64,000 nucleotides of DNA from a virus: the IMG/VR virus record IMGVR_UViG_3300045988_130745. The stretch is one strand, 5' to 3'. The notes beneath the pieces were generated by a model, which did not search any database, was not told where the DNA came from, and saw only the letters and a list, made by a program, of their open reading frames with translations. Made by a program: the position numbers and the translations under genes. Below, in pieces: positions 3,638 to 62,338 of this stretch; positions within the stretch are counted from its first letter, which is position 1, and every line of letters begins with the position of its first letter.

Positions 3638-3690
3638 GAGACAGTCGCAGCAATTTATTTTGTATGGCATTTACAGAAAAAGCTGTCTTG
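3638..3690 (+). ncRNA. stem-CAGCAA element E0
   Basis: Terminal helix gagacag/ctgtctt with CAGCAA just inside the 5' strand and a 3' G. Member of a 10-copy family. Confidence 0.5.
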
Positions 3691-3709
3691 AAATAAAATA
3701 AGTTTATGT

Positions 3710-3740
3710 GTCTGGGATATTGCTATTCCAGACATTTTTT
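3710..3740 (+). terminator. intrinsic terminator
   Basis: Stem gtctgg/ccagac followed by a T6 run. Confidence 0.65.
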
Positions 3741-3752
3741 GTATGAGGTAAA

Positions 3753-4322
3753 ATGGAATATTTCACTGGAAAAGGACGTTTAGATTTTGTTAAAGCAATA
3801 ACTGAATTGTTTTGCACGGAATTTCCCTAGACATTGCTGTATTACCGAACTTTTTTTAATTAGTTTTGGTATAAAAGGATTGATAAAAACAATTTTTGGA
3901 TAGATTTATTTCTTGGAATTATTCAATTAGATTTACCAATAGAGAATAAATCTTTTGAAGAAATCGAACAAATTATTTAGAAAATTTTTGTTTTAAATGA
4001 TTAGTATTTAAAATTGGAGATTAACAAAGAAGCAAGAAAACAAATGATTTAGTTTATTTCTTTTTTAATCTGTTATTTCAATTTAAAAGATGTTTCAAAT
4101 TTATCCAATAAAATTCAAATTGTTCAATTAAATTCTTTCCCGCCTAATTCTTTTTTTGGGATATGGGCAATGGAAATTGCTCATAGTTTAAAAATTACAG
4201 ACGGCTGGGAAGAATCAATTATTAAAGAAAATTCTGCACTTGTAGAAGAAACAATAAAACGTTATTATCTGCGCCGGGAGGCTTATTATGAAGACATACT
4301 AGAATGTTAGGGCTAGGATTGA
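3753..4322 (+). CDS. hypothetical protein (TAG-rich), first gene of cluster A
   Basis: Open 190-codon frame only if TAG is sense. ATG 3753, TGA 4320-4322. Absent from the ORF track because of its TAG codons. Confidence 0.5.
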
Positions 4323-4365
4323 CATAGAAGAAGCGCGAAAATATAAGACTTTAAATTTTAAGAAT

Positions 4366-4590
4366 ATGAGTTTGCGTAATCTAATTCAATTAATTTTGAA
4401 AACTTGCCAAGATGAAAGCATAGACCCGACAATTTTGAAAGAATCTTTTGAAAAATATTCTCAAGATTATGTAAAAAATTCAGAAGAGCTTACTAATCTT
4501 GCGCGTGAAATAGCTTTTAAATATGCAGGTAATGTCCCTTGTAATAGAGAAACTAATAATCTTAATTATGTAATTTATCCAGAAGAATAG
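4366..4590 (+). CDS. hypothetical protein
   Basis: 74-aa ORF from the track, directly upstream of radical SAM gene A1. Confidence 0.5.
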   Translation: MSLRNLIQLILKTCQDESIDPTILKESFEKYSQDYVKNSEELTNLAREIAFKYAGNVPCNRETNNLNYVIYPEE

Positions 4591-4606
4591 GAGATAGTAT
4601 ATACTT

Positions 4607-5974
4607 ATGCCGCACAGATTTAAAACATACCAAGAAGAAGTTGCGGAAGCTTTACTTCCTGTTGATTTAGTTACAAAAGGAGATTATTATTTAGGAGCTT
4701 GCCGTGAAGTAACATTTTAGATTACTAATGCCTGTAATTTAAGATGTGATTATTGCTACGAATGTAATAAAAGTTCAGAGAATATGTCTCTTGAAACTGG
4801 CAAGAAAATTTGTGATTTAATTTTAAAAGAAATAGATAAGCCAGAAGGATTTTTAGGACGAAAAACTTTAAGAGGTTTAATTCTTGAATTCATTGGTGGT
4901 GAGCCTTTGCTTTGCCCAGATTTAATTGATGGAATTATGTCTTATTTTCTGCCGCGCTTATATATAATTCGCCCTGAACTTGTTCCTTTTGTGAGAATTA
5001 GCTTAACAACTAATGGACAAAATTATTTTGATTCAAAAGTACAGAAATTTTTGAAAAAATATGAAAGCATTATTAGTCTAACTGTTTCTATTGATGGAAT
5101 AAAGGAATTACATGACGCTCATAGAGTCACAATCGACGGTAAAGGCTCTTTTGATAAGGCTATCGCAGCTTTTGAAGACGCAAAAGCACGGGGATGGAGC
5201 TATAGCAAAATGACTTTTGTTCCTCAAAGTTTTCCTTATATTGCGGATTCAATTAAATTTTTAATCAGTGAAAGTATCCAAGATATTTTTTGTAATTATG
5301 CTTATGAACCTTATTATAATCAAAAGGACGCTAAAGAATTTTATTATCAAATGAAAGAAGTAAGTGATTATTTATTTGATAATAATTTAAAAGACATTTA
5401 TATTTCTTGTCTTGATATGCTTGCGGATGGTAAAAGCTCTATGGAGGGAAATTATTGCGGTGGCACTGGTAATATGCTTTCTTTTGATATGAAAGGTAGA
5501 ACTTTTCCTTGCCTACGCTATCATCCCACCTGTCTTGGAGAAGAACTTTCAAGTACCGTTTAGCTCGGAGATTACAATGGTCTTTATCAAACTGAAGCGC
5601 AATGTAAGGCAAGAGATTGTTTAAATTGTATTACTTATAAATCTCAATCAGAACAAAAATGTATTGATTGTCCTGTTAGTTCTAATTGTGGCTGGTGCAG
5701 TGCGAATAATTTGCAAATGACTGGTTCAATTAATAAACGAGTAACTAATATTTGCTGGGCACATAAAGGAAGAGTTTTAGCTGGGTATTATTATTCTGCC
5801 AAACGTTATTTATTATGGCATGATTTTCGTCCTATGAAAATTTGTTTACCAGACGAAGATGCACTTCAAATTATTTCTCAATCTGAGTGGGATGGATTAA
5901 AAGCATTGGTAAATGAAGCAATTACTGTCTTCGAGAAAGAAAAAGACCCTCTACTTATTTCTTAGGAGGGATGA
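4607..5974 (+). CDS. radical SAM / SPASM-domain maturase A1 (anaerobic sulfatase-maturase-like)
   Basis: VTF[TAG]ITNACNLRCDYCYE gives the CxxxCxxC motif. GGEPLL is present. C-terminal CIDCPVSSNCGWC is SPASM-like. Track fragments 4784-5563 and 5711-5965 join in frame through TAG codons. TGA at 5972-5974. Confidence 0.8.
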
Positions 5975-5977
5975 TTT

Positions 5978-6625
5978 ATGAGTTTAACAAAAGGCAGTAA
6001 AGTTGAAGCTTCAGATTGGAATAATCTCGCTGATGCTTATAATTCTGAAATTGTTGATCGTCGAAAGGTAACTAACGTTAAAATCACTGGCGCGCAGATA
6101 GAATAGCAGATTAATTCTAATTCTACTATTGAGCCTTTAATTGCGGGATTGACTGCAACTACAAATGGCAGAATGGTTAATGAAGATGGTTCTTTAAGTT
6201 CTAACACTTATTCAGTTGCAAAAGGTAGAGGGACTTTGATTTATCCTCTTGAAGATCATCAAAAAGTTCTTTTACAGCTTTCTAAAATTAGTGTTTTTGC
6301 AGAGCCAGGTAAGAGCGGTTGCTACGGTAGCTGTGCTGGGTTATGTGCAAGCGGATGTATGGGCAATTGTAAAAATACTTGTACTGCGGCTTGTAAAAAC
6401 GATTGCGAGGGAACTTGTAAAACAGGTTGTACTTCATGTACCGGCACTTGTTCTGGCGGTTGTTCTAGCTGTTAGGGTGGCTGTGAAGGTTCTTGTTCTG
6501 GCGGTTGTAAAGATAGTTGTGTCCAAGAATGTAAATCAAGTTGTCATGATGCTTGTATGGGTTGCCAAAGTTCTCATGCAAGTTAGGGTTGTTCTTATTG
6601 CGAATGTGGTAATTATCCAGGGTGA
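5978..6625 (+). CDS. Cys-rich CxxxC-repeat protein (candidate maturase substrate)
   Basis: 215 aa. About 100 N-terminal residues lack Cys. Then comes a run of more than 25 Cys, mostly spaced CxxxC (CYGSCAGLCASGCMGNCKNTCTAAC...). Three in-frame TAG. TGA at 6623-6625. Confidence 0.75.
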
Positions 6626-6630
6626 TTTAT

Positions 6631-7221
6631 ATGTATCAAGATGGATATGTTACGCGCAGGGGATTTCTTCAAAAAGTTAAAGATGCTATATTTGATATAG
6701 ATATTGATGGAGAATTAAACGATTTTATTTTTAATCGTAAATGTTATGGACCATCAGATTATTCTCTCTTGCCCTTATTATTTTTAAAACTTGTGGCTTT
6801 ACGAAAAATTAATCATGTTCATCTTGAAAAAAATATCCGTTTTATTGTTGATAAAGCGGATATTTATTTTAATTTAGTTTAGCCGCAATATCACAAAGAA
6901 TTTGTTAATCAATTATCTTTATTGCTTTTATTCTTAATGCGGAGTGATAAATTAGCAATTATATTGTCTCAGAATTAGCTAATTCAAGAGATACTCAATT
7001 TTAAATTATTAAATAATTATATTATTATTTATTTTGCTTATATAGTTTTTAAAGAATTTGAAAGTGTTTATTCCTAGGGGAAATATTTAAAGTATTTCCG
7101 CGCGAAAAATCTTTCAATTATTTCTAATCAACTTTATATTTTAAATAATCATATTGAACAAGTAGAATATTTAATTTATAAAGATTATGAAGAAACTTGG
7201 ATGTGGACTTATGGTGACTAA
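6631..7221 (+). CDS. hypothetical protein (cluster A)
   Basis: ATG 6631. The frame continues through several TAG codons to the TAA at 7219-7221. Confidence 0.5.
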
Positions 7222-7540
7222 AAGAGTTTTTTAGCTAAGTGAAAAAGATAGAATTGAATTGATAAATTTAAACCATAGTATTTAGTCATATGAATAGTTT
7301 ATAGCTTTTATTACTAAATAGTTCTATTCAGACACTTGTGTTATTGAGCATAGCGTTTTAAAAGATTGGCTAATTAATTATTCCGAATAGCTGATTGCTT
7401 GGATAGAATAGAGAAATAGATTATGGGAGTCTATTAATGCTCAATTTGAATATAATATTTTGACGATTCCGAAGATTAAAAATATTTCTTATTCTATTGA
7501 TGCAGAGAAAGGAGTAATTATTTATTGTTATGAAAATTGA
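7211..7540 (+). CDS. hypothetical protein (cluster A)
   Basis: ATG 7211. 110-codon frame is open only with TAG as sense. TGA 7538-7540. Overlaps both neighbours. Confidence 0.4.
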
Positions 7541-8810
7541 AAAACGCTTTGGAGCGATGGCTAATTCTGCTTCTATTGTTTTTTAGATTACGGAATCTTG
7601 TAATTTAAATTGCTCTTATTGCTACTAGCATTTTAAAAGTCCTCGGACATTAGATTTAAATACTGCAATAAAAGAATGTCAAGAAATAATTCGGCTTCTT
7701 GAACAAGAAAATGGAATTTTAGGTAAAAATAATGTAAAAGAATTGACTATTTCTTTTATTGGCGGCGAACCATTTCTTTATCCAGAAATAATGGATATGA
7801 TAATTTAGATGTTAATGTCAGGTATCTCTATTGTAAGACCGGATTTATTACCTTTCATAAGACTTTCATTAAATACCAATGGTACACTTTTATAGAGAGA
7901 AGATGTAAAAAAATTTATTCTTAAACATGAAGATATATTAAATATTGCTCTTTCTCTTGATGGTATTAAAGAATTGCATGATAAAAATAGAATTAACCAA
8001 AAAGGAGAAGGAAGTTTTGACAAGGCTTTTAAAAATGGTTTATGGCTAAAAAAGCATGGCCTAGACCATATTAAAATGACTTTTTCAAAAGAAGATATTA
8101 ATTATATAGCTCCCTCTTTAAAATTTTTTCTTGAAAATGGTTTTAAACATATTGTCAGTACACCTATTTACGAAGACATTTATACCAAAAAAGATGCCCA
8201 ATAGGTTTATAAACAATGTAAAGAAATTGGGCAATACGTAATTAGCAATAAAATTTGGGATGAAAGAATTAGTATTCTCAACGAATACCCCGGATAGATT
8301 CTTGATTTTTCTAATTACCCTTGTGAAATTTTCGGAGATTCATTTTGTTTTTCAGTTGATGGGAAAGCATATCCATGTTGTCGTTTTGCTTCAACTTCTT
8401 TAAATAATAATTGTATAAATTATTCAATAGGAGATTGTGAGAAAGGGATTTTTAATTCAAATGATACCCTTTCGCGCGAAGAATTGAAAAAAATGACAGT
8501 CAATACTTGGATTGATAATGAATGTTTGAATTGTCCAATTTCTGGTGGCTGTGGTTGGTGTCCTGCTTATTGCGCGGAATTAGGGCAATTTGGAAAACGC
8601 ACCAAAGGTAACTGTTGGTTTCATCGTGCAAAAATTTTAGCGCTTTATAATTATAAGAATTAGCGTTCGATTATTTTAGGAGACTGTCAACCAGAGCCTA
8701 TAAAAATTCCAGAAGAAATTGCTCTTAAAATTATATCCCAAGAAGAATATGATACTTTAAAAGAGCAATATAGAAAAGCAAAAATTGCGTAGGCTTCGCG
8801 CAATAAATAA
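7530..8810 (+). CDS. radical SAM / SPASM-domain maturase A2 (paralog of A1)
   Basis: IVF[TAG]ITESCNLNCSYCY[TAG] carries TAG at the same position as in A1. GGEPFL is present. CLNCPISGGCGWCPAYC is SPASM-like. 427 codons to the TAA at 8808-8810. Confidence 0.8.
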
Positions 8811-8811
8811 A

Positions 8812-8879: not shown

Positions 8880-9596
8880 ATGTATTTTCTTGGAGATGTT
8901 CATGCAGAATCTCCTTTAATGGAAGGTTTTCTTGAATCAAAAGAGAAATATTGCCTTCAATTAGGTGATTTCGGCTTTATTTTCAAGTATAATGATTGGA
9001 AATGGAATAAGTTTCTTAATCATTTCGCGCGAGATTATCCAGAAAAAATGATTTTCACTATTTTAGGTAATCACGAGAATTATGATTCTATTGAGAAAAT
9101 GCCAATTAAGACAATATTTGGTGCGCGGTGTAGAGAAATTCGTTCAAATGTGTACGCAGTAGAGCGTGGAGAAATCCTTTCTATTGAAGGACTGAATATT
9201 CTTTGTATTGGTGGCGCGGATTCTATTGATAAAGTATATCGAGAGCCTAAAGAATCTTGGTGGCATCAAGAAGCAATTACCAGTCAAGATGTTATTAAAA
9301 CCGTAGACAAAGGTTTAACTCATTCTTTTGATATGATTTGTTCTCATACAATGCCTGCATTTTTTATGGATAAAAAATTTGCAACGCTTTTTAACACAGG
9401 TTCAGAGTTTTCTCTTGAAAAAATTTATTGCGATATTGAAAACAATGATAAACATATTCCTTTGTGGCTTGGCGGCCACGTTCATGCTTCAATAAGTTTA
9501 TCTTATAATGATACTTTATTTCGTACTCTTAATATTGGAGAAGGAATTGAATATCGTCAAGGAGACTCAATTAAAGATAAATTTCTAATCCAATAA
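8880..9596 (+). CDS. calcineurin-like metallophosphoesterase
   Basis: GDVH, GDFG, GNHE and GGHVH motifs in canonical order. No TAG. Confidence 0.75.
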   Translation: MYFLGDVHAESPLMEGFLESKEKYCLQLGDFGFIFKYNDWKWNKFLNHFARDYPEKMIFTILGNHENYDSIEKMPIKTIFGARCREIRSNVYAVERGEILSIEGLNILCIGGADSIDKVYREPKESWWHQEAITSQDVIKTVDKGLTHSFDMICSHTMPAFFMDKKFATLFNTGSEFSLEKIYCDIENNDKHIPLWLGGHVHASISLSYNDTLFRTLNIGEGIEYRQGDSIKDKFLIQ

Positions 9597-9657: not shown

Positions 9658-9873
9658 ATGGAAAAGATTAAGACTTCTCGCTATGCGCTTGGTACTAATT
9701 ATACTATGCCGGGTTCGGTGACTAATTTTGATAATTTCTTCATTGATAAGAAGAATGCTAAGGCAGTTTATACTAAATACACTCGTTTTGCCGCAAAGCG
9801 AGATAAGGAAATGGGTTTGATTACTGATGCGGCTTACAATGAGATTATGCGCCAGTTGAGTTTTAGGAAGTAA
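9658..9873 (+). CDS. hypothetical protein (GC-richer, TAG-free)
   Basis: 71-aa ORF with an SD-like GGAAAGGAAA upstream. CGT/GCT-rich codon usage like 10482-11972. Confidence 0.6.
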   Translation: MEKIKTSRYALGTNYTMPGSVTNFDNFFIDKKNAKAVYTKYTRFAAKRDKEMGLITDAAYNEIMRQLSFRK

Positions 9874-9885
9874 GAAATGAAATAA

Positions 9886-9914
9886 TTGACTTTCTATGAA
9901 TGTTATGATATAAT
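9886..9914 (+). promoter_or_regulatory. family promoter
   Basis: TTGACT 9886-9891 and TATAAT 9909-9914. Drives E1 and tRNA-Leu. Confidence 0.75.
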
Positions 9915-9930
9915 ATTTATAGAAACTTGA

Positions 9931-9989
9931 GAGACGATTACAGCAAGATTTAAACATAATGCTGTGAACTTATGGAAAAAATCGTCTCG
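9931..9989 (+). ncRNA. stem-CAGCAA element E1
   Basis: Helix gagacgatt/aatcgtctc, CAGCAA after the 5' strand, inner hairpin acagca/tgctgt, 3' G then TTTT. Confidence 0.5.
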
Positions 9990-9995
9990 TTTTAT

Positions 9996-10082
9996 GCTCG
10001 TGTGGTGGAATTGGCAGACACCAGGGACTTAAAATCCCTTGTTGGAAACAGCGTGCGGGTTCAAATCCCGCCATGAGCACCA
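9996..10082 (+). tRNA. tRNA-Leu (UAA), type II
   Basis: Acceptor gctcgtg/catgagc, anticodon loop CTTAAAA, long variable arm, T loop TTCAAAT, CCA encoded. Confidence 0.85.
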
Positions 10083-10216
10083 GTGGTTAGAACCAAACCA
10101 TTGACCAAAAGGTTCTCGAACGCCTTATCGTTACATGTGTGCTGACTTGGGCAGGTTCAAGATGAATCTGCGGCCTGGCACAGGCAGAAAAGAGCGTGGT
10201 TGCTCAGTGCTTATAT

Positions 10217-10295
10217 GGGGGATGGAATTGCTAGGAGTGATTGCCTGTTTTGCAAACAGGATAGCAGATGGGTTCGAATCCCATATCCTCCACCA
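10217..10295 (+). tRNA. tRNA-Ala (UGC)
   Basis: Anticodon stem cctgt/acagg with loop TTTGCAA. G3-U70 pair in acceptor gggggat/atcctcc. T loop TTCGAAT, CCA encoded. D arm is unusually long. Confidence 0.65.
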
Positions 10296-10374
10296 TTAAA
10301 TCTTTCCGAAACGGCGAGGGTCGTAGCGAATTATCTAAACGTAGCCAACGTTTTCTGGCGGCACAGGAAAGATT

Positions 10375-10455
10375 AAGACACATTTCAGCAAATTTTAATT
10401 ACCTTGCCATGTTTAAGGTATCCGACATTGCCGGATTTTATTATTTAGTGTCTTG
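10375..10455 (+). ncRNA. stem-CAGCAA element E2, in the 5' leader of the DUF2828/vWA gene
   Basis: Helix aagacac/gtgtctt and TTTCAGCAAA. Ends 27 nt before the ATG at 10482. Confidence 0.5.
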
Positions 10456-10481
10456 AGTTCCTCAAGAGAAAGGAAGAATAT

Positions 10482-11972
10482 ATGAATAAGTTTGTAAATG
10501 CTATTTCCAATGAGGCTTCTCTTAATGGTTCTGCGAAGTTGACCGAGAATGGTGCAATTGCTCGCTCTACCACTGGGGATTGTCTGCTTGATTTTTATGC
10601 GGTTTCTGGTGCGTTGCGTACTCGCAGTGAAGCTGATATTTTGAGTCTCTTTAAGAAGGCTTGGAATGAGAATCCTCTGTATGCGCTGAAGACTGTGTTT
10701 ATGACTCGTGATATTCGCGGTGGACGTGGAGAGCGTCGTACTGCTCGTATCATTCTGAAGTATCTGGCAGATGTCGCGCCGCAGACTGTTATCAAGAACT
10801 TTGATAATATCATGGAGATGGGTCGTGCTGATGACTTTTATGAGTTCGTTGGCACTTCTGTCGAATCTGCTATGTGGCAGTATTTGCGTAATCAGATTGT
10901 TGAAGACTTGAAGAATATGCGTGCGGAGAAGCCTATTTCTTTGACCGCAAAGTGGCTGAAGTCTATTAACACTTCTTCTAAGGAGTCTCGTGCGCTTGGT
11001 CGTAAGACTGCTCGTGCGCTTGGCCTGACCGAACGTGAATATCGTAAGACTCTTTCTCGGCTGCGTAATTACCTCAAGGTTGTTGAGGTAAAGATGTCTG
11101 CTGGCGAGTGGACCGATATTGATTATGCTGCGGTGCCTGCTGTAGCGATGAATCGTTATCGTAAGGCTTTTAAGCGTCATAATCCTTCTGCTTTCGATAC
11201 TTATATCGAAAAGGTCGAAAAGGGTGAAGAGAAGATTAATGCTTCTACTTTGTATCCTTATGACCTGGTAGAAAAGATTATGCAGAACAATAGCTACTGG
11301 TCTACTGATGTTAAGGAAGACCCCGTTATTGAAGCTCAGTGGAAGGCTTTGCCCAACTACATTGAGGGTGAGAATAACGTGCTGGTTATGGCTGACGTAA
11401 GTGGTTCTATGTATGGTCGTCCTATGGCTACTTCTGTTGGCTTGGCAATTTATTTTGCCGAGCGCAATAAGGGTGCTTTTAAGAACACTTACATGACCTT
11501 TACTAACTGTCCTCATTATATCCAGATTCAGCCTGGTCAGACTCTGGCGGAAAAGGTTGAAGCCGTGATGCGTACTGATGTCGGTTATAGCACTAATTTG
11601 GAGCGTGCATTTATGCAGGTTCTGGATACTGCCGTGATGAATCGTGTACCTCAGAAGGATATGCCTAAGGCAATGGTGGTTATTTCCGACATGGAAATTG
11701 ATCGCTACTTCCGTGGACAGGGACTTGATTTCGTGTCTGAGATGGTCCGTCGTTTCCGCGCGGCTGGCTATCAGATGCCTCGTCTGGTTCTTTGGAACGT
11801 ACAGGCTCGTTCCAACACTTTCCACGCCAACTCTACTAATCCTTATGTTACTTTTGCGAGTGGGCAGGGTGTTGCGGAGTTTAAGAATGTGTTGGCCGGC
11901 ATTTCTCTTGACGCTTATGCAGCAATGATGAAGGCTTTGGATGACGAGCGTTATGCTTCTGTTGTCCTGTAA
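10482..11972 (+). CDS. DUF2828-like protein with C-terminal vWA domain (TROVE/Ro60-like architecture)
   Basis: 496 aa. N-terminal helical region contains NPLYALKTVFMTRDIRGGRGERR. C-terminal MADVSGSM fits a DxSxS MIDAS motif. No TAG. Clearly higher GC than its neighbours. Confidence 0.7.
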   Translation: MNKFVNAISNEASLNGSAKLTENGAIARSTTGDCLLDFYAVSGALRTRSEADILSLFKKAWNENPLYALKTVFMTRDIRGGRGERRTARIILKYLADVAPQTVIKNFDNIMEMGRADDFYEFVGTSVESAMWQYLRNQIVEDLKNMRAEKPISLTAKWLKSINTSSKESRALGRKTARALGLTEREYRKTLSRLRNYLKVVEVKMSAGEWTDIDYAAVPAVAMNRYRKAFKRHNPSAFDTYIEKVEKGEEKINASTLYPYDLVEKIMQNNSYWSTDVKEDPVIEAQWKALPNYIEGENNVLVMADVSGSMYGRPMATSVGLAIYFAERNKGAFKNTYMTFTNCPHYIQIQPGQTLAEKVEAVMRTDVGYSTNLERAFMQVLDTAVMNRVPQKDMPKAMVVISDMEIDRYFRGQGLDFVSEMVRRFRAAGYQMPRLVLWNVQARSNTFHANSTNPYVTFASGQGVAEFKNVLAGISLDAYAAMMKALDDERYASVVL

Positions 11973-12065
11973 ATGAACGATTAAAAGGTGTTCTAAAATT
12001 TTCTTGCTTTGCAAGTTGGGTAAATAAGAAGTTAGGACCAAGTGATGGGAGTTCAAGCCTTTTAA

Positions 12066-12094
12066 TTGACTTTTTATGATTTCTATGATATAAT
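12066..12094 (+). promoter_or_regulatory. family promoter
   Basis: TTGACT 12066-12071 and TATAAT 12089-12094. Confidence 0.75.
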
Positions 12095-12111
12095 ATTTAT
12101 AGAAATCAATT

Positions 12112-12296
12112 AGATGGATTCAGCAATTAAAGTTTTTTAGATATAAATTATTATTTTAATTGTACAGATTTAGCTATTTTCTCGGTGAAATTTGGACATT
12201 TCATTTAGAGGTTGCTGTCAAGATGTTCTTATAGCTAAATCACCGCGCGGTACTTTTAACTTTTAACTTTTAACTTTTAACTTTTAATCCATCTAG
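12112..12296 (+). ncRNA. stem-CAGCAA element E3 (long variant)
   Basis: Helix agatggatt/aatccatct, which covaries relative to other copies. CAGCAA follows the 5' strand. Contains a 7-mer tandem repeat. Confidence 0.45.
12253..12287 (+). repeat. tandem repeat (CTTTTAA) x5
   Basis: Five perfect head-to-tail 7-nt units, read directly. Confidence 0.9.
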
Positions 12297-12305
12297 TTTT
12301 TATAT

Positions 12306-12381
12306 GACTTCGTAGCTCAGATGGTAGAGCAGTGGCCTGAAGAGCCGCGCGTCGAGGTCTCGAAAGCCTCCGAAGTCACCA
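12306..12381 (+). tRNA. tRNA-Phe (GAA)
   Basis: Acceptor gacttcg/cgaagtc, canonical D arm agctcagatggtagagc, anticodon loop CTGAAGA, CCA encoded. T loop CTCGAAA is atypical. Confidence 0.8.
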
Positions 12382-12390
12382 TTTATTATT

Positions 12391-12528
12391 AAGACGATTT
12401 CAGCAAATAATTTTTAAATATAATTAATAGCGTAGGGCTAGCAGTTATTGGTTCGAATCCAATCGACCCCACTTGAGGGGTTGTAGCTTAATTGGCAAAG
12501 CGGCTAATAAATTATTGATGTCGTCTTG
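12391..12528 (+). ncRNA. stem-CAGCAA element E4 enclosing a circularly permuted tRNA-like module
   Basis: Order: helix 5' strand aagacga, CAGCAA, small hairpin, T arm attgg-TTCGAAT-ccaat, acceptor 3' strand cgacccc, 6-nt loop, acceptor 5' strand ggggttg, D arm gctt-aattggca-aagc, helix 3' strand tcgtctt. There is no anticodon loop. Confidence 0.5.
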
Positions 12529-12534
12529 TTTTAT

Positions 12535-12625
12535 ACTCCCTTATCTCAACGGTAGAGAAGCGGACTTATAACCCGTATTAGCACCAGATTAGTGCATGAT
12601 GTCCGTTCGAATCGGACAGGGAGTA
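12535..12625 (+). tRNA. type-II-like tRNA with UAU anticodon (identity ambiguous)
   Basis: Acceptor actccct/agggagt, anticodon loop CTTATAA, 24-nt variable arm with a gcac/gtgc stem, T arm gtccg-TTCGAAT-cggac. No encoded CCA. Confidence 0.55.
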
Positions 12626-12632
12626 TTTATAT

Positions 12633-12708
12633 CGGGGATTAGCGCAGTTGGTAGCGTACTTGATTTGGGATCAAGGGGTCGCGAGTTCGAGTCTCGCATC
12701 TTCGACCA
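12633..12708 (+). tRNA. tRNA-Pro (UGG)
   Basis: Anticodon stem cttga/tcaag with loop TTTGGGA, T loop TTCGAGT, CCA encoded. Confidence 0.85.
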
Positions 12709-12793
12709 TTAGGGAAGCGCTGAGTAGCTACAGCGAGACTAAGGTGCCTTCACACCGGCCTTATATTTTATTTATTCTGAAGGAGAATAAATT

Positions 12794-13588
12794 ATGTATA
12801 ATCCTATTTGTGGTATTTATAAAATTACTAATTTGATTAATGGACATTGCTATATTGGGCAAAGTAGGAATATTAAGAAACGATGGGAAGAGCATCGAAC
12901 TAGAGCTTTTAATATTAAAGATGATGGATATAATTATCCTCTTTATAAAAGTTTTAGAAAATATGGTCTTTAGAACTTTTCTTTTGAAATAATTGAGCAA
13001 TGCTCAGAAAAGTAGTTAAACGAAAAAGAAAATTATTGGATTTAGTTTTATTAGGCAAATTATAATTAGACTATTGGACAAGATTATTAGGTAGTTCCTA
13101 AAAAATTAACAATAGAGGAAGTACAAGAAATACAAAATTACTTAATTGAAAGTTCAAATGATTCTTTAGATATTTCATTAAAATAGTTGGCAGAAAATTA
13201 TCATGTTTCTTAGCTTACTATTCGAGATATTAATGTAGGACGTTCTTGGGCTAATAGTAAATTAAAATATCCTTTGTACCAATCTAAATATAATCCGAAT
13301 AATAAAATAACTAATAACTATTGTCCTATTTGCGGATAGAAAATTTCTTAGAAAGCTAAATTTTGTCCTCAGTATTATTCAACTATAAATATCAGTCCTC
13401 GAAAAAGTAAAATTAATATCACAAGAGAAGAATTAAAAAGACGAATTAGAATAGAATCTTTTTCTTAGATAAGCAAAGATTTTAATGTTAGTGATAATGG
13501 TATAAGAAAGAAATGCCAAAAGCTAAATCTTCCTTATCGTAAGAAAGATATAGATACTTATTCTGATGAAGAATGGGCAAAACTTTAA
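12794..13588 (+). CDS. GIY-YIG homing-endonuclease-like protein (copy b)
   Basis: MYNPICGIYKITNLINGHCYIGQS... 265 codons are open only with TAG as sense (many TAG). C-terminus resembles copies a, c and d. Conserved leader upstream. Confidence 0.85.
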
Positions 13589-13611
13589 GAGGTTTTACCT
13601 CTTTTATATTG

Positions 13612-13688
13612 CGGGATGTAGCAGTAGTTCGCTAACGGGTCTCATAAGCCCGTGTAGGCCGTGAGCATAACCGGCTCCCGCATCCAAT
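13612..13688 (+). tRNA. tRNA with CAU anticodon (Met, fMet or Ile2)
   Basis: Acceptor tgcggga/tcccgca, D stem tagc/gcta, anticodon loop CTCATAA, CCA encoded. T arm is non-canonical. Confidence 0.6.
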
Positions 13689-13833
13689 AAAACCTTCGTT
13701 AAAACAACTCTCTAAACCTTTGGGTCTACGGTAGTGCTTTGACGGAAGCCTAGGTTAAGCGTAATGAGTTGACGAGACCTAGTTAATTACAGATAAGCCA
13801 GCGGGTTTCTGCGAAGGTCACCCGCAATCATAC

Positions 13834-13909
13834 GGGTATAGCTCAGTTGGTAGAGCATCTGGCTTACATCCAGAAGGTCAACAGTTCAAGCCTGTTTATC
13901 CGTTCCATT
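13834..13909 (+). tRNA. tRNA-Val (UAC)
   Basis: Acceptor acgggta/tatccgt, D arm agctcagttggtagagc, anticodon loop CTTACAT, T loop TTCAAGC, CCA encoded. Confidence 0.85.
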
Positions 13910-13913
13910 AGAG

Positions 13914-14000
13914 ACACATTTAAAACAGCAATTATTTTTGGTTAAAATACTAATCTGATAAATTGGTTAAGCAGTTCAAATCTGTAAGTTGTGTCTTGTT
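13914..14000 (+). ncRNA. stem-CAGCAA element E5 (contains one T-arm-like hairpin)
   Basis: Helix agacaca/tgtgtct, CAGCAA, internal gcag-TTCAAAT-ctgt hairpin, 3' TG then TTTT. Confidence 0.45.
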
Positions 14001-14004
14001 TTGC

Positions 14005-14093
14005 GGAGTGAACCAGTCGGGGAACTGGGTACGCCTGCTAAGCGTTACGACAGAGAGATCTGTTTGGGGTCGGCACCCACGCTCCGCGCCATA
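14005..14093 (+). tRNA. tRNA-Ser (GCU), type II
   Basis: Acceptor gcggagt/gctccgc, anticodon loop CTGCTAA, variable-arm hairpin acaga-gaga-tctgt, CCA encoded. T loop GTCGGCA is atypical. Confidence 0.7.
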
Positions 14094-14096
14094 AGC

Positions 14097-14173
14097 ATCT
14101 ATAGGCAAATTGGCAAAGCCGGCACATTTAGGATGTGCTGTTTAAGAGTTCAAGTCTCTTTGGATGCACCAAT
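14097..14173 (+). tRNA. tRNA with UAG anticodon (Leu by anticodon), short variable region
   Basis: Acceptor gcatcta/tggatgc, anticodon stem gcaca/tgtgc with loop TTTAGGA, T loop TTCAAGT, CCA encoded. Shares its D arm with tRNA(CAA) at 1343. Confidence 0.7.
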
Positions 14174-14241
14174 AGTCATATAATTGAAACGGAAATGGGC
14201 ATAAGTCGGAAATGGTTGATATTTTATGACTTTTTAATAAA

Positions 14242-14358
14242 GACGATTGCAGCAATAATTCTTAACAAGAATTTATCATCGGTTCAACTCCGATATTACC
14301 CGCCATTAAACAGAGTAATTAGCTCAATTGGTAGAGCGCTTCTTTTAATCGTCTTGAA
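14242..14358 (+). ncRNA. stem-CAGCAA element E6 enclosing a circularly permuted tRNA-like module
   Basis: Perfect 9-bp helix aagacgatt/aatcgtctt and GCAGCAA. Then hairpin aattctt-aac-aagaatt, T arm atcgg-TTCAACT-ccgat, acceptor 3' strand attaccc followed by GCCA, loop, acceptor 5' strand gagtaat, and D arm agctcaattggtagagc. Confidence 0.5.
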
Positions 14359-14398
14359 ATTGAATAATTCTAGTCAGACAATAACAGCTACCCAACGT

Positions 14399-14467
14399 CA
14401 GGATAGTGTAGAGGTTAGCACGCTGTGAAAGACCAGTATCCTGGGTTCGAATCCCAGTCCTGAGGAA
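14399..14467 (+). tRNA. tRNA-like gene with truncated or aberrant anticodon arm (possible pseudo-tRNA)
   Basis: Good D arm (gtgt-agaggtta-gcac), T arm (ctggg-TTCGAAT-cccag) and acceptor. The anticodon arm is 3-4 nt too short, with a loop near TGAAAGAC. No CCA. Confidence 0.4.
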
Positions 14468-14498
14468 ACGTACATTGTCTAGTTGAAAGGTATCTTAA

Positions 14499-14684
14499 AT
14501 GAGGATGAATGTATTTACGGGACGAGGTAATTCATATGACTCCGCCGCAGAACAAGCACAGGATGATTTAATCAATTATTGCCAAGTTAATTGTATATCT
14601 GGTAATGATGTGATTTCATTAGCACCAACAGTTGTTAGCGATCAATTCGGTTATATAATTTCTTTGTGGCTCTTGTTAAAGTGA
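14499..14684 (+). CDS. hypothetical small protein
   Basis: 61-aa ORF from the track. No recognisable motif. Confidence 0.35.
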   Translation: MRMNVFTGRGNSYDSAAEQAQDDLINYCQVNCISGNDVISLAPTVVSDQFGYIISLWLLLK

Positions 14685-14781
14685 TACTAGATTTAGATAC
14701 AAAATTCAATAGAACTACTAAATATATAGTAGGAAATGAAGCTCCAATTTTGTTGGGGCTTCTTTTTATAAGGAGGCTCCA

Positions 14782-17058
14782 ATGAATAAAGTTATTAAAA
14801 GAAATGGCTAGGAAGTTGATTTTAAGATTGAAAAAATTGAAAGAGCTATTTCTGCGGCAAATAATGAAGTCGAAGGTGCAGACAAAATAAGTGTAATTGG
14901 GTTACGCTCTATTGTTGATGAAGTTGAAAGACAATGTGAGAGAGCTACTCATGCGCTTAATGTAGAAGATATTCAGAATATTGTTGAAGAAACTATTATG
15001 GAAGAGGGATATTTTGAAGTCGCACGACATTATATTAAATATCGTTATCTCCATGAAATGATTCGTGACCAATATCAAGTTTTAATGAATGAAGTGTCTA
15101 AGAAACTTGACGCGACTGACATTCAAAATCAAAATGCAAACGTTGACGAAGCATCTTTCGGTGGGCGCCAAGGTGAGGCATCAAATTATTTAACTAGTCA
15201 ATATGCTCTTGATTATTGTATGTCAAAAATGGCAAGAGAAAATCATTTGAATAATGAAATTTATACTCATGATCTTTCTTCTTATGCTGTTGGTTGCCAT
15301 AATTGTTTGACAATTCCTTTTGATGATTTACTTGCAAAAGGTTTTAATACTCGTCAAACAGATGTTCGTCCCGCGCAATCGGTTAGTACTGCTTTTCAAT
15401 TAGTTGCAGTTATTTTTCAAATTCAATCATTGCAACAATTCGGTGGAGTTAGTGCAAGTCATCTTGATTGGACAATGGTTCCTTATGTAAGAAAGAGCTT
15501 CCGTAAGCATTATCGAGACGGTAGAAAATATATCTATTTTGATAATGAAGGGGATAGAGTCAGAGGAATTGCTGATGAAGCGGTCTTGGCTAAAGATGAT
15601 TTTAGTATTACCGATCCTATTTTTGAAAAATATTATCCAAAAGCATATAAATATGCAATGGATATGACTGAACGCGAAGTCCATCAAGCTGTTGAGGGAA
15701 TGTATCATAATCTTAATACTCTTCAGTCTCGCTCTGGCAATCAATTACCGTTTACTTCAATTAATTACGGGACTTGCACTTTACCCGAAGGACGCATGAT
15801 TACTAAAGCTTTGCTTGAAGTTTCTATTGACGGTATTGGAGAATTGCATAGAACTTCTATTTTCCCTTGTGGTATTTTTCAAGTAATGAAAGGTGTTAAT
15901 AAAGAGCCTGGTACTCCTAACTATGATTTGTATAGATTGGCTTTAAAGTCAACAGCTCAGAGACTTTATCCTAATTATGCCAATGTTGATTGGAGTGGTA
16001 ATGCTGGTTATGATAGGAATGATCCTCGTACTTACTTTTCAACCATGGGCTGTAGAACTGCAAATGGCTGGGACATTAATGGTTTTGGTCAATTAAAAGA
16101 TGGACGCGGAAATATTTGCCCAGTAACAATTATTCTTCCTACACTTGCAATGGAAGCAAAAGAGTATATTCTCAAACACTCTACTGGTGAAGATCTCGAA
16201 GGACAAACAGTTGATAAATTTTTGTCTGTTCTCGATCAAAAATTGTATGAAGCAAAAGATCAATTAATTGAGCGTTTTGAATGGATTTGTAAGCAAAGTC
16301 CAGAAGCCGCGAAATTCATGTATGAGAACAATGTTATGGCTGGATATAATCCAGAAGAAGGAATCCGCTCTGCTTTGAAACATGGTACTTTAGCTATTGG
16401 TTTATTAGGCATGGCAGAAACACTCCAAATTCTTATTGGATGCAATCAACTTGAACCAGAAGGTATGGAACTAGCTAAACGAATTTGCCAGTTGTATAAA
16501 ATTCGTTGTGCAGAATTTAAAGAGCAATATAAATTAAATTTTGGTGTTTACTACACTCCCGCTGAAAATTTATGTTATACTGCGATGAAGAAGTTCCAAA
16601 AAAAATACGGTAAGATTCCTAATATTTCTGATAGAGATTTCTTTACTAATTCTATTCATGTTCCTGTTTGGGAAGAAATAGATATTTTCAAAAAGATTGA
16701 CATTGAATCTCAATTAACTGGATATTCTAGCGCGGGTTGCATCACTTATATTGAACTTGACTCAGGCGCAAAACATAACATTGATGCTCTTGAAACAATA
16801 GTTAATTATGCAATGGACCATGATATTCCTTATTTTGCAATCAATGTTCCTAATGATATGTGTATGGATTGCGGCTATACTGATGAAATTGGTAACGATT
16901 GTCCTCAATGTCATGGCGAAAATATTCGTCGTTTGCGCAGAGTGACAGGATATTTAACTGGTGATTATAAAACTGCTTTTAATCCTGGCAAGCAAGCCGA
17001 AGCAGAAGCAAGATTTAAGCATAGTAAAATTACCAAATTTGGGAAAGGGAATAATTAA
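14782..17058 (+). CDS. nrdD: anaerobic ribonucleoside-triphosphate reductase with N-terminal ATP-cone
   Basis: MNKVIKRNG[TAG]EVDF is an ATP-cone start. C-terminal CMDCGY..CPQCHG zinc ribbon and RRVTGYL glycyl-radical motif. In frame with track ORF 14998-17058. Confidence 0.9.
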
Positions 17059-17777
17059 TGGTTTATCAAGGTTCAAAATCGAGAGTAGCTAAAGATATTT
17101 GTCCTATTATTCAAAAAGCAATAGATGAATCAAATTGTGATACATTTATTGATGCCTTTGTTGGCGGTGCGAACCTAATCTAGCATATTAAATGTGAAAA
17201 TAGAATTGGATATGATATTAATCCTTATCTGATTGCATTACTTAATAATTTAGATAAGATTCCAAATTTTGAAGTCCCTATTTCAAAAGAAGAGTATGAT
17301 ATTTGTCGAGCTGAGTGGCGCTCCGCTCAATTAACACATCCAGACTGGTATATTGGTGCCGTTGGCTATATTGCTTCTTTTGGTGGAAGATTTTATGATG
17401 GTGGATATGCAAAAGATGTTCCAGCAAGCGACCCAAAACGGCATGAACATCGTAATAGAAAGAATAACATTCTTAAACAGACACCAGAATTAACTGGTTG
17501 CAAATTTGAAGTAAAAGATTTCTTTTCTCTTGATTGCACGAATGCCATTATTTATTGCGATCCACCTTATAATGGAACTAAGCCTTATCCATATGATAAC
17601 TACGATAAAGAAGCGTTTTGGAATAAGGTTAGAGAATTATCTGAACATAACCAAGTCTTTATTTCTGAGTTGAGCGCACCAGATGATTTTAAGATGGTTT
17701 GGCATAAGAAAATTAAAAATACTGTCGGATTAAATAATTCTCTTGACCAAGTCGAGAAACTATTTATTAAGAAATAA
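17058..17777 (+). CDS. N6-adenine DNA methyltransferase (Dam-like, D12 class)
   Basis: YQGSKSR near the N-terminus and CDPPY catalytic motif. One in-frame TAG. TAATG overlap with nrdD. Confidence 0.75.
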
Positions 17778-45092: not shown

Positions 45093-45104
45093 AGGAGTTT
45101 TGCT

Positions 45105-47747: not shown

Positions 47748-47817
47748 AAGACGATTTCTGCAAAACTTTTGATGTTTTAACAATATGGATGATAAAACAA
47801 AATGAAAAATCGTCTTG
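47748..47817 (+). ncRNA. stem-CAGCAA element E7b (CTGCAA variant)
   Basis: Perfect helix aagacgatt/aatcgtctt, TCTGCAAA, 3' G. Confidence 0.45.
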
Positions 47818-47903: not shown

Positions 47904-48026
47904 AGAGCGTTGATGGGACGCTTCTTAATATCCCATTGCCAATAGGGGAGCATTAACGACGGTTAATGAGATTAAGGTGCCTCCACACCGGCCTTATATT
48001 TTATTTATTCTGGAGGAGAATAAATT

Positions 48027-49816: not shown

Positions 49817-50351
49817 TTAATCAAAGTTTTTAATTAGGTTTAACCCTTTCGAAGGATTATAGCTGAAGTGGAGCAATGCCTGAGCTAGACACGCATTGTA
49901 TGGTACACTGAAACACCAAATAAACCGCGGTATAATAGGTGTTATAATGCCGAACACTTAATTAAAGTAAAAGAACGCCAATCTTTGATTAAATTGGGCT
50001 GGAGTTTATCTCCTTGGTCCACTAATCCAGTGGAATTTCTACTGGCGGCTTTACGACAGACCCGTAAGAAATCTGTCCCTCTGAATAGATACTCGCATAG
50101 CAGCAAACTCTTTCTAGTTGGAAGAATAAAAGTAAGTATTACTTGATAATGCTTTGATCGCTCGCCCATTCAAACTGGGAGTATCTAGTAATAAAAGAGG
50201 TCTGGGATGAATGTGCGAGTAAAATTTTTAATAGCTGGGTTTAGAATGACCGCTATTGAAAATAGGTTTTCATTACCTAAGTGTGAACCTTTGCAGGGCA
50301 GGTATCCTTTGCAAGTATGAATCCTTGTGGGGTGGGTATCCCCTGCTTTAT
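49817..50351 (+). ncRNA. about 535-nt ORF-poor segment between two tRNAs (candidate large structured RNA)
   Basis: No credible + strand ORF even with TAG as sense. Many local inverted repeats. Flanked directly by tRNA genes. Confidence 0.3.
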
Positions 50352-60661: not shown

Positions 60662-60693
60662 TATTATAGAAAATGAGGAAAGGAAATGAGATT

Positions 60694-61022: not shown

Positions 61023-61029
61023 ATTTATA

Positions 61030-61508
61030 GAAAGTTAAGGAAAGATTACTTAATTTTTACGACAGTTTTGTTGGCAGACACTTCACTGAGCAAAAAAATG
61101 TGAGCTGCTAGGTTTTACGAGAGGGGTCACAGGCTACCAGAAATGGAGCTGAACCGAGCCAAACCTCCTAACGCAGAAGTTGCGTTCATAAATTACTTGT
61201 AATCTTAGCCTAAAGTGACAGGGTGCTAAAAGATTACTTCGCCACTCTTAATTGAGTGGTAAGGTTCGCTATAATTGATACCTCCACGCGGTGCGAACTG
61301 GACAATCTGATGAACTTGGAAGTCAGATTGACGAAAATCAATAGACATGAAAGACGAAATGAATACAAGCTCTCTTTCGTCAGTTAAATTGCACCAGCTT
61401 CGATGGTAGAATGGATTAACGTTCTGATAATTGTCGGCGCAATGCGCATCTACGGCACGGGTAAAGACGTCCCTTGCAAAAGCAATTAGACCATGTCGTT
61501 TTTATTAT
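61030..61508 (+). ncRNA. about 480-nt non-coding transcript segment between a promoter and tRNA-Glu (candidate large structured RNA)
   Basis: No ORF in any + frame even with TAG as sense. GC is above local background. Multiple hairpins, for example gacgaaa...tttcgtc. Confidence 0.3.
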
Positions 61509-61584
61509 GACCCCTTCGTCTAAAGGTGAGGATAGGAGGCCTTCAACCTCCAGATGCAGAGTTCGACTCTCGCAGGGGCCACCA
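61509..61584 (+). tRNA. tRNA-Glu (UUC) with C at position 33
   Basis: The 5' half ccccttcgtctaaagg is typical of tRNA-Glu. Anticodon stem ggagg/cctcc with loop CCTTCAA. T stem has a bulged A. A2-C71 mismatch. CCA encoded. Confidence 0.6.
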
Positions 61585-61587
61585 TAT

Positions 61588-61662
61588 ACTTCCGTAGTCT
61601 AACGGTTAGGACACGGTCCTGATAAGGCCGATACACTAGTTCAACTCTAGTCGGAAGTACCA
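61588..61662 (+). tRNA. tRNA-Ile (GAU)
   Basis: Acceptor acttccg/cggaagt, anticodon stem cggtc/ggccg with loop CTGATAA, T loop TTCAACT, CCA encoded. Confidence 0.85.
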
Positions 61663-61796
61663 GTTGCGTGACAGTCGTAGAACTCCTATCGGCTGTTTAA
61701 AAAACTAGGGTAGGACTTATGAGTGGAGTTCGCTTGTAAGACGCGCGAGAAAACGTCGCCCAGAGTATTTGCTTCAAAGTCACTCGCGCATTATAA

Positions 61797-61874
61797 CGGC
61801 CAGTAAAGGAAATGGCTAAACTTACTTCCCTCTCAAGGAAGAATTTGGCGGTTCAAATCCGCCCTGGTCGACCA
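61797..61874 (+). tRNA. tRNA with CUC anticodon (Glu by anticodon), poor D arm
   Basis: Acceptor cggccag/ctggtcg, anticodon stem cttcc/ggaag with loop CTCTCAA, T arm ggcgg-TTCAAAT-ccgcc, CCA encoded. Confidence 0.5.
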
Positions 61875-62056
61875 AGGTGTTGATACCTGCAAGCCTCAAG
61901 AAACGATTTAATAGGATACTAGTTACCTATTGAATTAAAGTATTGAGAAACTACAAATCAAAAGATACGTTGTGGAACGGGAATGATACTAACCGGAAAG
62001 CGTAAATCGTATTAGAGAAAAATGGTCTGGAACTCTTTAAATTATCGGACTACCGA

Positions 62057-62132
62057 GCTGGAGTGGCGCAATTGGTAGCGCAGCTGATTTGTAATCAGAA
62101 GGTTGCGGGTTCAAGTCCTGTTTCCAGCACCA
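62057..62132 (+). tRNA. tRNA-Thr (UGU)
   Basis: Acceptor gctggag/ttccagc, D arm gcgc-aattggta-gcgc, anticodon loop TTTGTAA, CCA encoded. Confidence 0.8.
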
Positions 62133-62136
62133 TTAT

Positions 62137-62211
62137 GCGTTTGTAGTTCAATGGAAGAATCGCAGACTCTTAATCTGTCAGATGCAGGTTCAAATCCTGT
62201 CAAGCGCACCA
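62137..62211 (+). tRNA. tRNA-Lys (CUU)
   Basis: Acceptor gcgtttg/caagcgc, anticodon loop CTCTTAA, T loop TTCAAAT, CCA encoded. Confidence 0.8.
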
Positions 62212-62215
62212 TTTA

Positions 62216-62338
62216 AAGACCATCACAGCATCTGAAATTGGCTTGTAACCCGCTTGTCGTCGAGTTCGATTCTCGACAGTATCTTCTCTTAAATGGGAAC
62301 ACTTAGCTCAGTGGTAGAGCAGCGTATTGTTGGTCTTG
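62216..62338 (+). ncRNA. stem-CAGCA element E8 enclosing a circularly permuted tRNA-like module
   Basis: Helix aagacca/tggtctt and CACAGCA. T arm gtcgag-TTCGATT-ctcgac, imperfect acceptor tcttctc / loop ttaaat / gggaaca, canonical D arm tagctcagtggtagagca. Confidence 0.45.

Follow-up and report, generated by a model that had tools for sequence, protein, structure and literature searches.

What kind of element is repeated ten times within the tRNA arrays of this phage, and which molecule reads it? The window analysed here is a 64,000-nt stretch of IMG/VR record IMGVR_UViG_3300045988_130745. It belongs to a large phage, whose near-identical relatives are IMG/VR contigs of 110–180 kb. An earlier reading of the DNA (the sequence-only reading) had listed ten copies of an RNA element with a covarying terminal helix (P1) and a CAGCAA motif, and had offered three candidate roles: processing signal, protein-binding handle or stabilising clamp. 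The elements are probably Y-RNA-like small non-coding RNAs, most likely forming ribonucleoproteins with the Ro60-like protein encoded at 10482–11972. Y RNAs are the closest known kind, overlooked in that reading together with the fact that three copies are circularly permuted tRNA mimics of YrlA type.

The family is genuine and operates as RNA. Each of the ten listed copies was located, on the + strand without exception, and P1 is part of the minimum-free-energy (MFE) fold of each of the nine copies folded; the 186-nt copy at 12111, listed earlier as 12112, was left out. The helix starts exactly 10 nt 5' of CAGCAA in 8 of 10 copies, irrespective of helix length (exceptions: 11 nt at 10375, about 15 nt at 13911). 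In every copy the 3' strand of P1 is followed by an unpaired G. G·U pairs are tolerated. Whole elements span 53–186 nt; P1 encloses 35–165 nt. The pattern AGAC...CAGCAA, given as common to all, is literal in seven of the ten; the copy at 12112 (AGATGGATT) and the variants at 47748 (CTGCAA) and 62216 (CAGCAT) miss it, yet form the helix. Differing but complementary inner pairs were found as described on re-reading the sequence (GAT/ATC, ACA/TGT, AG/CT, CA/TG and AGATGGATT/AATCCATCT), as was the non-coding placement after promoters, between tRNAs or in the leader of the 10482 gene. A T run, said to be usual after the helix, is seen in about half of the window copies.

Chance does not account for the pattern. 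AGAC-N(3-12)-CAGCAA has 9 matches in the window against 0.95 expected, a number reached by 0 of 100 shuffles. Two of its matches are chance matches and not family copies: 15569, on the − strand, and 45699, inside a GIY-YIG open reading frame (ORF). The comparison set consisted of the window and 83 related loci (980 kb; loci are cited below by L numbers). Two earlier generic helix scanners were dropped, with 126–176 matches on controls, and a fixed-register scanner was used instead (≥7 bp in that register, CAGC[AG], 3' G). It detected 197 elements on the + strand versus 14 on the − strand. Among unique CAGCAA sites, an in-register helix of ≥7 bp accompanies 123/376 (33%) on the + strand versus 5/247 (2%) on the − strand. 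ACAGCAA sites carry the helix at offset 10 in 99/210 cases, at offsets 6–9 and 11–15 in 4–24/210, and at offset 5, where only a 5-bp helix is needed, in 48/210.

Covariation was read from an alignment (A2) of 58 short elements, all from phages other than the window phage. Two-sided changes occur at 8 of 9 P1 pairs, in 106 cells. The covariation score is 0.55, versus 0.20 for shuffled alignments (0 of 500 reach it) and 0.05–0.11 for slid partners. Invariant in A2 are one G-C pair, CAGC, the A two positions after CAGC, and the 3' G. A covariance model (CM R1) was built from A2, with the window and its close relatives excluded, and the window was scanned with filters off; all ten listed copies rank within the 12 best matches, at 9928, 14237, 47745, 47656, 3635, 13908, 10372, 12388, 62213 and 12108 in order of E-value. 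A further match, at 5388 (E 0.47), lies inside a radical-SAM ORF and was discarded. The sequence of P1 is wholly different among lineages: AAGGCGC/GCGCCUU, UAGUCACU/AGUGGCUA, GGACGC/GUGUCC, UGAUGCUU/AAGCAUCA. The AGAC/GTCT helix described as shared holds in the clade of the window phage and is local to it; conserved across the family are ACAGCAA, one G-C pair and the 3' G.

In a linkage set of 74 loci, whose homologues are 46–66% identical to the window protein, 166 of 166 CM matches (E ≤0.1) lie on the strand of the Ro-like gene and 0 on the opposite one. The earlier claim that conservation acts on an RNA structure and not on a DNA site is thus upheld by strand bias, register-specific helix, cross-phage covariation and independent recovery by the CM. 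DNA-level repeats, whether recombination sites, homing-endonuclease targets or protein-binding inverted repeats, might be suspected from the several GIY-YIG homing-endonuclease genes within the same tRNA regions; the absolute strand bias (166:0), the tolerated G·U pairs and the compensatory changes at 8/9 pairs of a helix not conserved in sequence leave them a negligible probability. Intrinsic terminators or attenuators of short promoter-driven transcripts would fit the T runs. However, P1 is AT-rich and encloses 35–165 nt, tRNAs that must be transcribed follow immediately, and terminators would explain neither why the loop motif is conserved nor why the elements are linked to the protein gene. 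No compact G+C-rich hairpin with a U tract was found in the elements (GC content 0.19–0.44), and terminators are accordingly extremely improbable.

The presumed reader is the protein of 10482–11972. Its AlphaFold2 model, made from 41 homologues, has a predicted local distance difference test score (pLDDT) of 91 and a predicted TM-score (pTM) of 0.90, and has the Ro60 architecture of a HEAT-repeat ring (TROVE) followed by vWA. The best ten Foldseek matches in the PDB are all Ro60/TROVE, full length, with E 4e-10 to 2e-7, 516–574 aligned columns and TM-scores of 0.50–0.62. They include Xenopus Ro60 with RNA (2i91, 1yvp), human Ro60 entries from cryo-electron microscopy, Thermus phage phiLo Ro60 (9l5y) and 9kop, 'Trove domain'. 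Below these ten, only isolated vWA domains are matched. On the strength of the model, the protein is predicted with high confidence to be a full-length structural homologue of Ro60. A PDB sequence search with it gave no match, and a literature search on DUF2828 returned only unrelated plant and tardigrade papers.

Gene and module travel together. Nearly full-length homologues of the protein occur in at least 709 GenBank phage records, usually beside a tRNA array. In the 74 loci, CM matches are concentrated close to the Ro-like gene, on its upstream or downstream side. Positions were counted for 122 strong elements at 53 non-identical loci: 54 elements lie ≤500 nt upstream of the Ro-like start codon, and 24 lie 1,000–2,000 nt from it, around or just past the end of the ~1.5-kb gene. 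At least one element is present in 48 of these loci, and in 33 an element ends ≤120 nt from the start codon. An equivalent of the leader copy at 10375 stands upstream of the gene in L010–L083. By CM, the module is found beside the gene, on the same strand, in cultured phages of seven host genera: Staphylococcus phage BE22 (three tandem copies, E 3e-9), Bacillus phage Thrax1 (six copies near the gene), Campylobacter phage CP8, Listeria phage AG20, an Enterococcus Schiekvirus, E. coli Felixounavirus REP7, and mycobacteriophage Silverleaf, whose protein bears the annotation 'Ro-like RNA binding protein'. In 252 Felixounavirus-type records, Felix O1 among them, the region of REP7 is conserved. A scan starting from the RNA (AAAGACNNNTACAGCAAT in IMG/VR) gave 123 matches, with a few kb fetched around each. 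Helix length was bimodal, 53 matches having a P1 of 7–10 bp and 70 having ≤6 bp; a DUF2828 gene was present in 18/53 helix-positive stretches, on the same strand every time, versus 4/70 helix-negative stretches.

The linkage also bears on the other two roles first proposed. If the elements were stabilising clamps of the tRNA polycistrons, or processing or punctuation signals in them, a host or phage RNase would read them independently of the Ro-like protein. Consistent with this, the elements lie between tRNAs or between promoter and tRNA, 3–11 nt from tRNA ends, and DUF2828 genes usually adjoin tRNA arrays, so the linkage could be indirect. However, tandem arrays abut the protein gene with no tRNA between (three copies in BE22; also CP8 and AG20), most lineages have a copy in the protein's own leader, and the fixed 10-nt register, invariant ACAGCAA and 3' G point to a dedicated reader and not a generic clamp. 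Signals of this kind are therefore unlikely as the main function. Processing and clamping may occur as side effects, which leaves the linkage to the protein gene unexplained. The protein-binding handle is the best supported of the three roles, given a Ro60 structural homologue whose gene is flanked by the module across phages.

The interiors of the elements are diverse. Window copies 12391 and 14240 have the arm order of YrlA, and a permuted tRNA-like domain (T, acceptor-like and D arms) is found in these two and, with a poor acceptor, in 62216; the short window copies lack it. Among relatives it is found in 13/151 unique elements, and 124/151 have neither T nor D arm, with a modal size of 55–67 nt and a single interior hairpin. 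Sub-threshold matches to Rfam YrlA (RF02553) recur in relatives (L039, 40.7 bits; L065, 36.2 bits; Silverleaf, 39.8 bits). Two loci have a non-permuted counterpart of copy 62216: L026 4808–4920 and L044 4683–4802 match Rfam tRNA at 52 bits with an insert of 40–50 nt, which is a P1 + CAGCAA hairpin at the position of the anticodon arm; in L026 the anticodon-like loops CUUAUAA and CUGAUAA flank it. Loops of the form YU...R. occur in 69/151 interiors versus about 15 expected, a count that includes T loops. The idea that every short copy is an anticodon-stem-loop mimic was rejected: CU-NNN-AA loops are a feature of a subset, only about 30/151 interiors.

Such tRNA parts could also mean split, permuted or intron-bearing tRNA genes, in which P1 + CAGCAA directs cutting and rejoining, for example by an RNA ligase. 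G-CCA is kept after the acceptor 3' strand in several copies (window 14240; L012 13530; L011 12650), L026 and L044 hold the module in the anticodon arm of an otherwise full-scoring tRNA, anticodon-like loops are enriched, and L010 has genes for an RNA ligase and a kinase in the vicinity. Against these stand the 124/151 unique elements devoid of T or D arm, an acceptor with an A·C mismatch at 14240 and absent at 62216, and leader copies, which cannot give tRNAs. No full cloverleaf is formed, and ARAGORN calls none of the elements. A tRNA-gene origin of the family is very unlikely.

Under the favoured explanation, that of Y-RNA-like partners of the Ro60-like protein, in a family particular to Ro paralogues of DUF2828 type, P1 (6–10 bp), ACAGCAA in the adjoining internal loop and the unpaired 3' G would form the protein-binding handle, analogous to the terminal stem and GNCGAA/CGAA bulge recognised by canonical Ro60. 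The variable interior would be an effector or mimic module: a permuted tRNA mimic in three window copies, a hairpin in others, in relatives often with an anticodon-like 7-nt loop. The distance from the 3' G to the next tRNA is 5–11 nt at 9989, 12296, 12528, 47817 and 62338, and from a tRNA 3' end to P1 it is 3–9 nt at 3638, 12391, 13911 and 62216. Since the RNAs lie 3–11 nt from tRNA ends in polycistrons, RNase P and 3' processing would release them.

Feedback of the leader copy on translation of the Ro-like protein is a weaker suggestion. The 3' strand of P1 at 10375 overlaps a CUUGAG/CUCAAG hairpin just 5' of the Shine-Dalgarno sequence, and in several lineages the ribosome-binding site can pair with this strand or with the bases that directly follow it. 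Autoregulation is suggested because the leader copy adjoins or overlaps sequence with this pairing capacity. The ribosome-binding site is ≥75% paired in 12 of 18 leader cases, a figure that has no control and is noisy because starts of tblastn matches are not always true start codons.

A role in tRNA or RNA metabolism, or in counter-defence during infection, is likely. Bas63 gp130, a structural homologue of Ro60 encoded directly upstream of tRNAs, counters the Ppl defence (preprint 10.1101/2024.10.10.617714); from its description and the conservation of the locus in the 252 Felixounavirus-type records it is presumed to be a DUF2828 homologue. LeBron gp53, labelled 'Ro-like RNA-binding protein', is toxic when overexpressed; its annotation and size of 472 aa match the DUF2828-type Silverleaf protein, so that its membership of the family is putative. 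The Rsr-like protein of Listeria phage CKA15 is present in virions, and its gene lies just downstream of the most-transcribed non-coding regions (PMC12282133). One further reading, tentative and rather improbable, is a modular platform for counter-defence or tRNA surveillance, in which one handle (P1 + ACAGCAA) displays a repertoire of tRNA parts. The parts, whole permuted tRNA bodies or isolated anticodon-stem-loop mimics, might decoy, titrate or recruit tRNA-acting host factors (anticodon nucleases, repair enzymes, PNPase, the Ppl system); the protein might throttle its own synthesis via the leader copy, and some permuted G-CCA copies might mature into working tRNAs.

Several points weigh against Y-RNA-like partners of a Ro60-like protein, an explanation in which binding of the elements by the 10482–11972 protein is something that we infer. 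By sequence the protein is not a TROVE member: Pfam gives DUF2828, and with a TROVE Ro60 hhalign can align nothing beyond the MIDAS stretch of vWA, at 25% probability. The relation to Ro60 appears at fold level only, the hhalign result being a weak match to one TROVE sequence. The motif GNCGAA(N0-1)G near the 5' end is absent from the family; the GACGATT(G) seen in some window copies belongs to the covarying helix, and relatives do not conserve it. The RF02553 gathering score of 69 bits is reached by no window copy or relative (25–41 bits). The 'percent paired' figure of A2 is circular because its sequences were chosen for pairing; the conditional counts of CAGCAA sites and offsets are the non-circular test. 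In phage KVP40 the protein is present and the module was not detected by CM. Most helix-positive stretches of the RNA-first scan have no DUF2828 gene within the few kb fetched. Several window copies are 37–52 kb from the Ro-like gene; 4 of the 10 listed copies (3638, 47659, 47748, 62216) and the 50086 candidate are more than 4 kb away. The published CKA15 RNA sequencing does not establish expression of the module because the one highly transcribed region published with coordinates is another stretch. That region, CKA15 26,236–26,727 (L088 989–1480), reported as the most strongly transcribed of a P100-like phage, was considered as the module and rejected: it is a non-coding stretch of ~490 nt behind a strong promoter, with the CAGCAA array and the Ro-like gene downstream of it, and is a separate RNA.

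Coordinates are collected in Table 1, which includes two candidate copies beyond the ten listed.

Table 1. Family copies and associated features of the window, with scores of covariance model R1
Feature	Position	Strand	CM R1	Description
Suppressor tRNA, anticodon CUA	3558–3633	+		ARAGORN label 'Pyl'
Short copy	3638–3690	+	24.6 bits, E 0.008	Directly 3' of suppressor tRNA(CUA); P1 GAGACAG/CTGTCTT, then CAGCAA, 3' G; P1 in MFE fold
Promoters	9885, 12068, 47616			TTGACT-N17-TATAAT; precede family copies
Short copy	9931–9989	+	39.2 bits, E 5e-6	5' end of promoter-driven transcript; tRNA-Leu 6 nt on; P1 9 bp; fold z-score −4.8
Leader copy	10375–10455	+	E 0.017	5' untranslated region of Ro-like gene
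Ro-like protein gene	10482–11972	+		496 aa; Pfam DUF2828 + DUF7788/vWA; PHROG 850 'RNA-binding protein'
Long copy	12111–12296	+	13.1 bits, E 2.5; 3' end misplaced because of its length	3' of promoter; P1 TAGATGGATT/AATCCATCTA (10 bp); interior (ACTTTTA)n run
tRNA-mimic copy	12391–12528	+	E 0.16	Circularly permuted domain: T arm, 7-bp acceptor hairpin, D arm; YrlA type; Rfam YrlA 32.8 bits, E 9e-5 (12427–12527)
Longer-spacer copy	13911–13998	+	E 0.0098	Interior a degenerate non-permuted tRNA-like segment, CUGAUAA loop; Rfam tRNA 25.8 bits at 13928–13993, sub-threshold
tRNA-mimic copy	14240–14356	+	E 1e-4	Permuted: V hairpin, T arm, acceptor hairpin keeping G-CCA, D arm; Rfam YrlA 25.3 bits (14240–14358); MFE fold a four-way junction
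Candidate 11th copy	14375–14482	+	Missed in window scan	P1 AGACAAT/ATTGTCT, in MFE fold; CAGCTA; encloses non-permuted tRNA-like segment 14397–14465 (Rfam tRNA 40.6 bits; anticodon arm defective)
Short copy	47659–47725	+	E 0.0017	3' of promoter; interior long hairpin, 7-nt CUUAAAA loop
Short copy	47748–47817	+	E 0.0011	Tandem with 47659 copy; CTGCAA variant; tRNA-Asn 11 nt on
Candidate 12th copy	50086–50188	+	11.3 bits, E 6.1 (weak)	P1 TAGATACTC/GAGTATCTA plus 3' G, read from sequence; CAGCAA 15 nt from helix start
Copy with tRNA parts	62216–62338	+	E 0.53	Permuted T and D arms, poor acceptor; CAGCAT variant

At least 28 tRNA genes are present in the window, on the + strand without exception. 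At gathering level, an Rfam scan of the window matched tRNAs only. Rfam tRNA matches that ARAGORN does not call are 14397–14465 (40.6 bits) and 61509–61581 (39.1 bits); for the tRNA-like gene 62621–62697 ARAGORN gives an undetermined two-base anticodon, 'cc'. In-frame TAG codons are pervasive alongside the CUA-anticodon tRNA. When TAG is counted as a codon, summed ORFs of ≥100 aa grow from 38.7 kb to 65.2 kb, and for this reason the amber stop is regarded as recoded: TAG is read as sense in the window phage.

Non-coding inter-tRNA stretches that are GC-richer and apparently structured, outside the CAGCAA family, occur at 1421–1626, 10083–10216, 10296–10374, 13591–13831, 13999–14094, 47461–47600, 61663–61796 and 61875–62056; an E-value scan found no Rfam match for them within 9800–14600, and none of those listed matches at gathering level. 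GIY-YIG homing-endonuclease ORFs, rich in in-frame TAG, lie directly 3' of tRNA genes (1873–2629, 12709–13588, 47904–48773, 45093–45881). Three of them have a conserved block 5', ...TAAGGTGC(C/T)(T/C)C(A/T)ACACCGGCCTT(A/T)TAT..., and block plus ORF looks like a mobile cassette or intron remnant. In the region 4607–8810, radical-SAM enzymes (4607–5974, 7530–8810) flank a Cys-rich ORF of 215 aa (5978–6625), an arrangement resembling a peptide-modification cassette.

Other genes lie near the Ro-like gene. A calcineurin-like metallophosphoesterase, which may be an RNA end-healing enzyme, recurs near it in distant phages and is encoded at 8880–9596 in the window, L011 7727–8404, L012 8430–9122 and L090 4559–5800. 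In L010, whose homologue is 66% identical, a T4 Rnl1-type RNA ligase, a KTI12/AAA_33 kinase and a PTH2 peptidyl-tRNA hydrolase are clustered (14683–17557) 3–6 kb downstream of the Ro-like gene. A gene for a band-7/SPFH membrane protein lies shortly upstream of the Ro-like gene in mycobacteriophage Silverleaf (L084 1026–1904) and in a gut-phage relative (L011 9008–9823).

Already known are Y RNAs and phage Ro60, and some annotations label DUF2828 proteins 'Ro-like'. Two papers speculate that Y-RNA partners hide near tRNAs, without identifying them (PMC12282133; 10.1101/2024.10.10.617714). Neither Rfam 15 nor the searchable literature yielded a definition of the module, its covariation, breadth across phages, multiplicity per genome or leader copy. 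Many unrelated phages have the same pairing of protein and RNA, Felix O1-like and P100/A511-like ones among them, and in these the RNAs have seemingly never been defined. DUF2828 is found, among others, in phages of Felix O1 type, Listeria biocontrol phages of P100/A511 type, cluster L mycobacteriophages, and phages of Campylobacter, Staphylococcus, Enterococcus and Bacillus. The helix, ACAGCAA in fixed register and the 3' G provide a searchable definition of predicted Y-RNA partners. The module accounts for part of the unannotated space of phage tRNA arrays and for some odd 'tRNA-like' calls. The function of phage Ro-type particles becomes testable in culturable phages, one of which shows a defence-counter phenotype; interest in the module is solid because it can be tested immediately in model phages. 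The Ro/Y-RNA partnership would then have diverged into a second pair of protein and RNA motif, both sides changing together.

In permuted tRNA genes of the Cyanidioschyzon merolae type, the 3' half precedes the 5' half and the termini pair. The long copies of the present family are similar in that the T arm, the acceptor 3' strand and sometimes CCA precede the acceptor 5' strand and D arm. They differ in having no bulge-helix-bulge motif and imperfect acceptors, and most members of the family have no tRNA parts.

Thermus phage phiLo encodes a Ro60 and the RNAs Yrl1 and Yrl2, whose binding by Ro60 was demonstrated by electrophoretic mobility shift assay (PMC12135203). As here, a phage Ro-type protein has small RNAs encoded beside its gene, in which a 5'-3' stem flanks a bulge with a short conserved motif. 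The phiLo protein has the canonical Ro60 fold and its RNAs a CGAA motif, whereas the present system has another protein family and another motif, and is known from sequence and model.

Published Y RNAs have a 5'-3' stem beside an internal loop with GNCGAA/CGAA and are encoded near Ro60, on its strand (PMC4201824; PMC12135203); in the YrlA class, a permuted tRNA-like domain comprises V, T, acceptor-like and D arms (PMC4201824). The family described here resembles YrlA (RF02553; Chen et al. 2014, PMC4201824) in its terminal stem, in the conserved motif in the adjacent internal loop, in being encoded once or several times near a gene for a protein of Ro-type ring and vWA, a few kb away at most and on its strand, and in the permuted tRNA-like domain (V, T, acceptor-like, D arms) often found in at least one copy per phage. 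Its shorter members, without tRNA mimic, resemble YrlB. It differs in ACAGCAA at a fixed 10-nt register with a 3' G instead of GNCGAA(N)G, in RF02553 scores of only 25–41 versus 69 bits, in far more copies per genome (10–12), set within tRNA arrays, in many interiors that are single hairpins, some anticodon-like, and in the copy in the protein's own leader. Where YrlA lies within about 4 kb of a TROVE Ro60 and on its strand, strand and proximity here refer to a Ro60 structural homologue that is DUF2828 by Pfam, and four of the ten listed window copies lie farther off. Mycobacteriophage ET08 has a true TROVE + vWA_Ro60 protein; RNAs of GGCCGAAGG type lie upstream, and the regions read contain no ACAGCAA module. 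Because ET08 uses RNAs of that type, the motif tracks the protein family, GNCGAA with TROVE and ACAGCAA with DUF2828.

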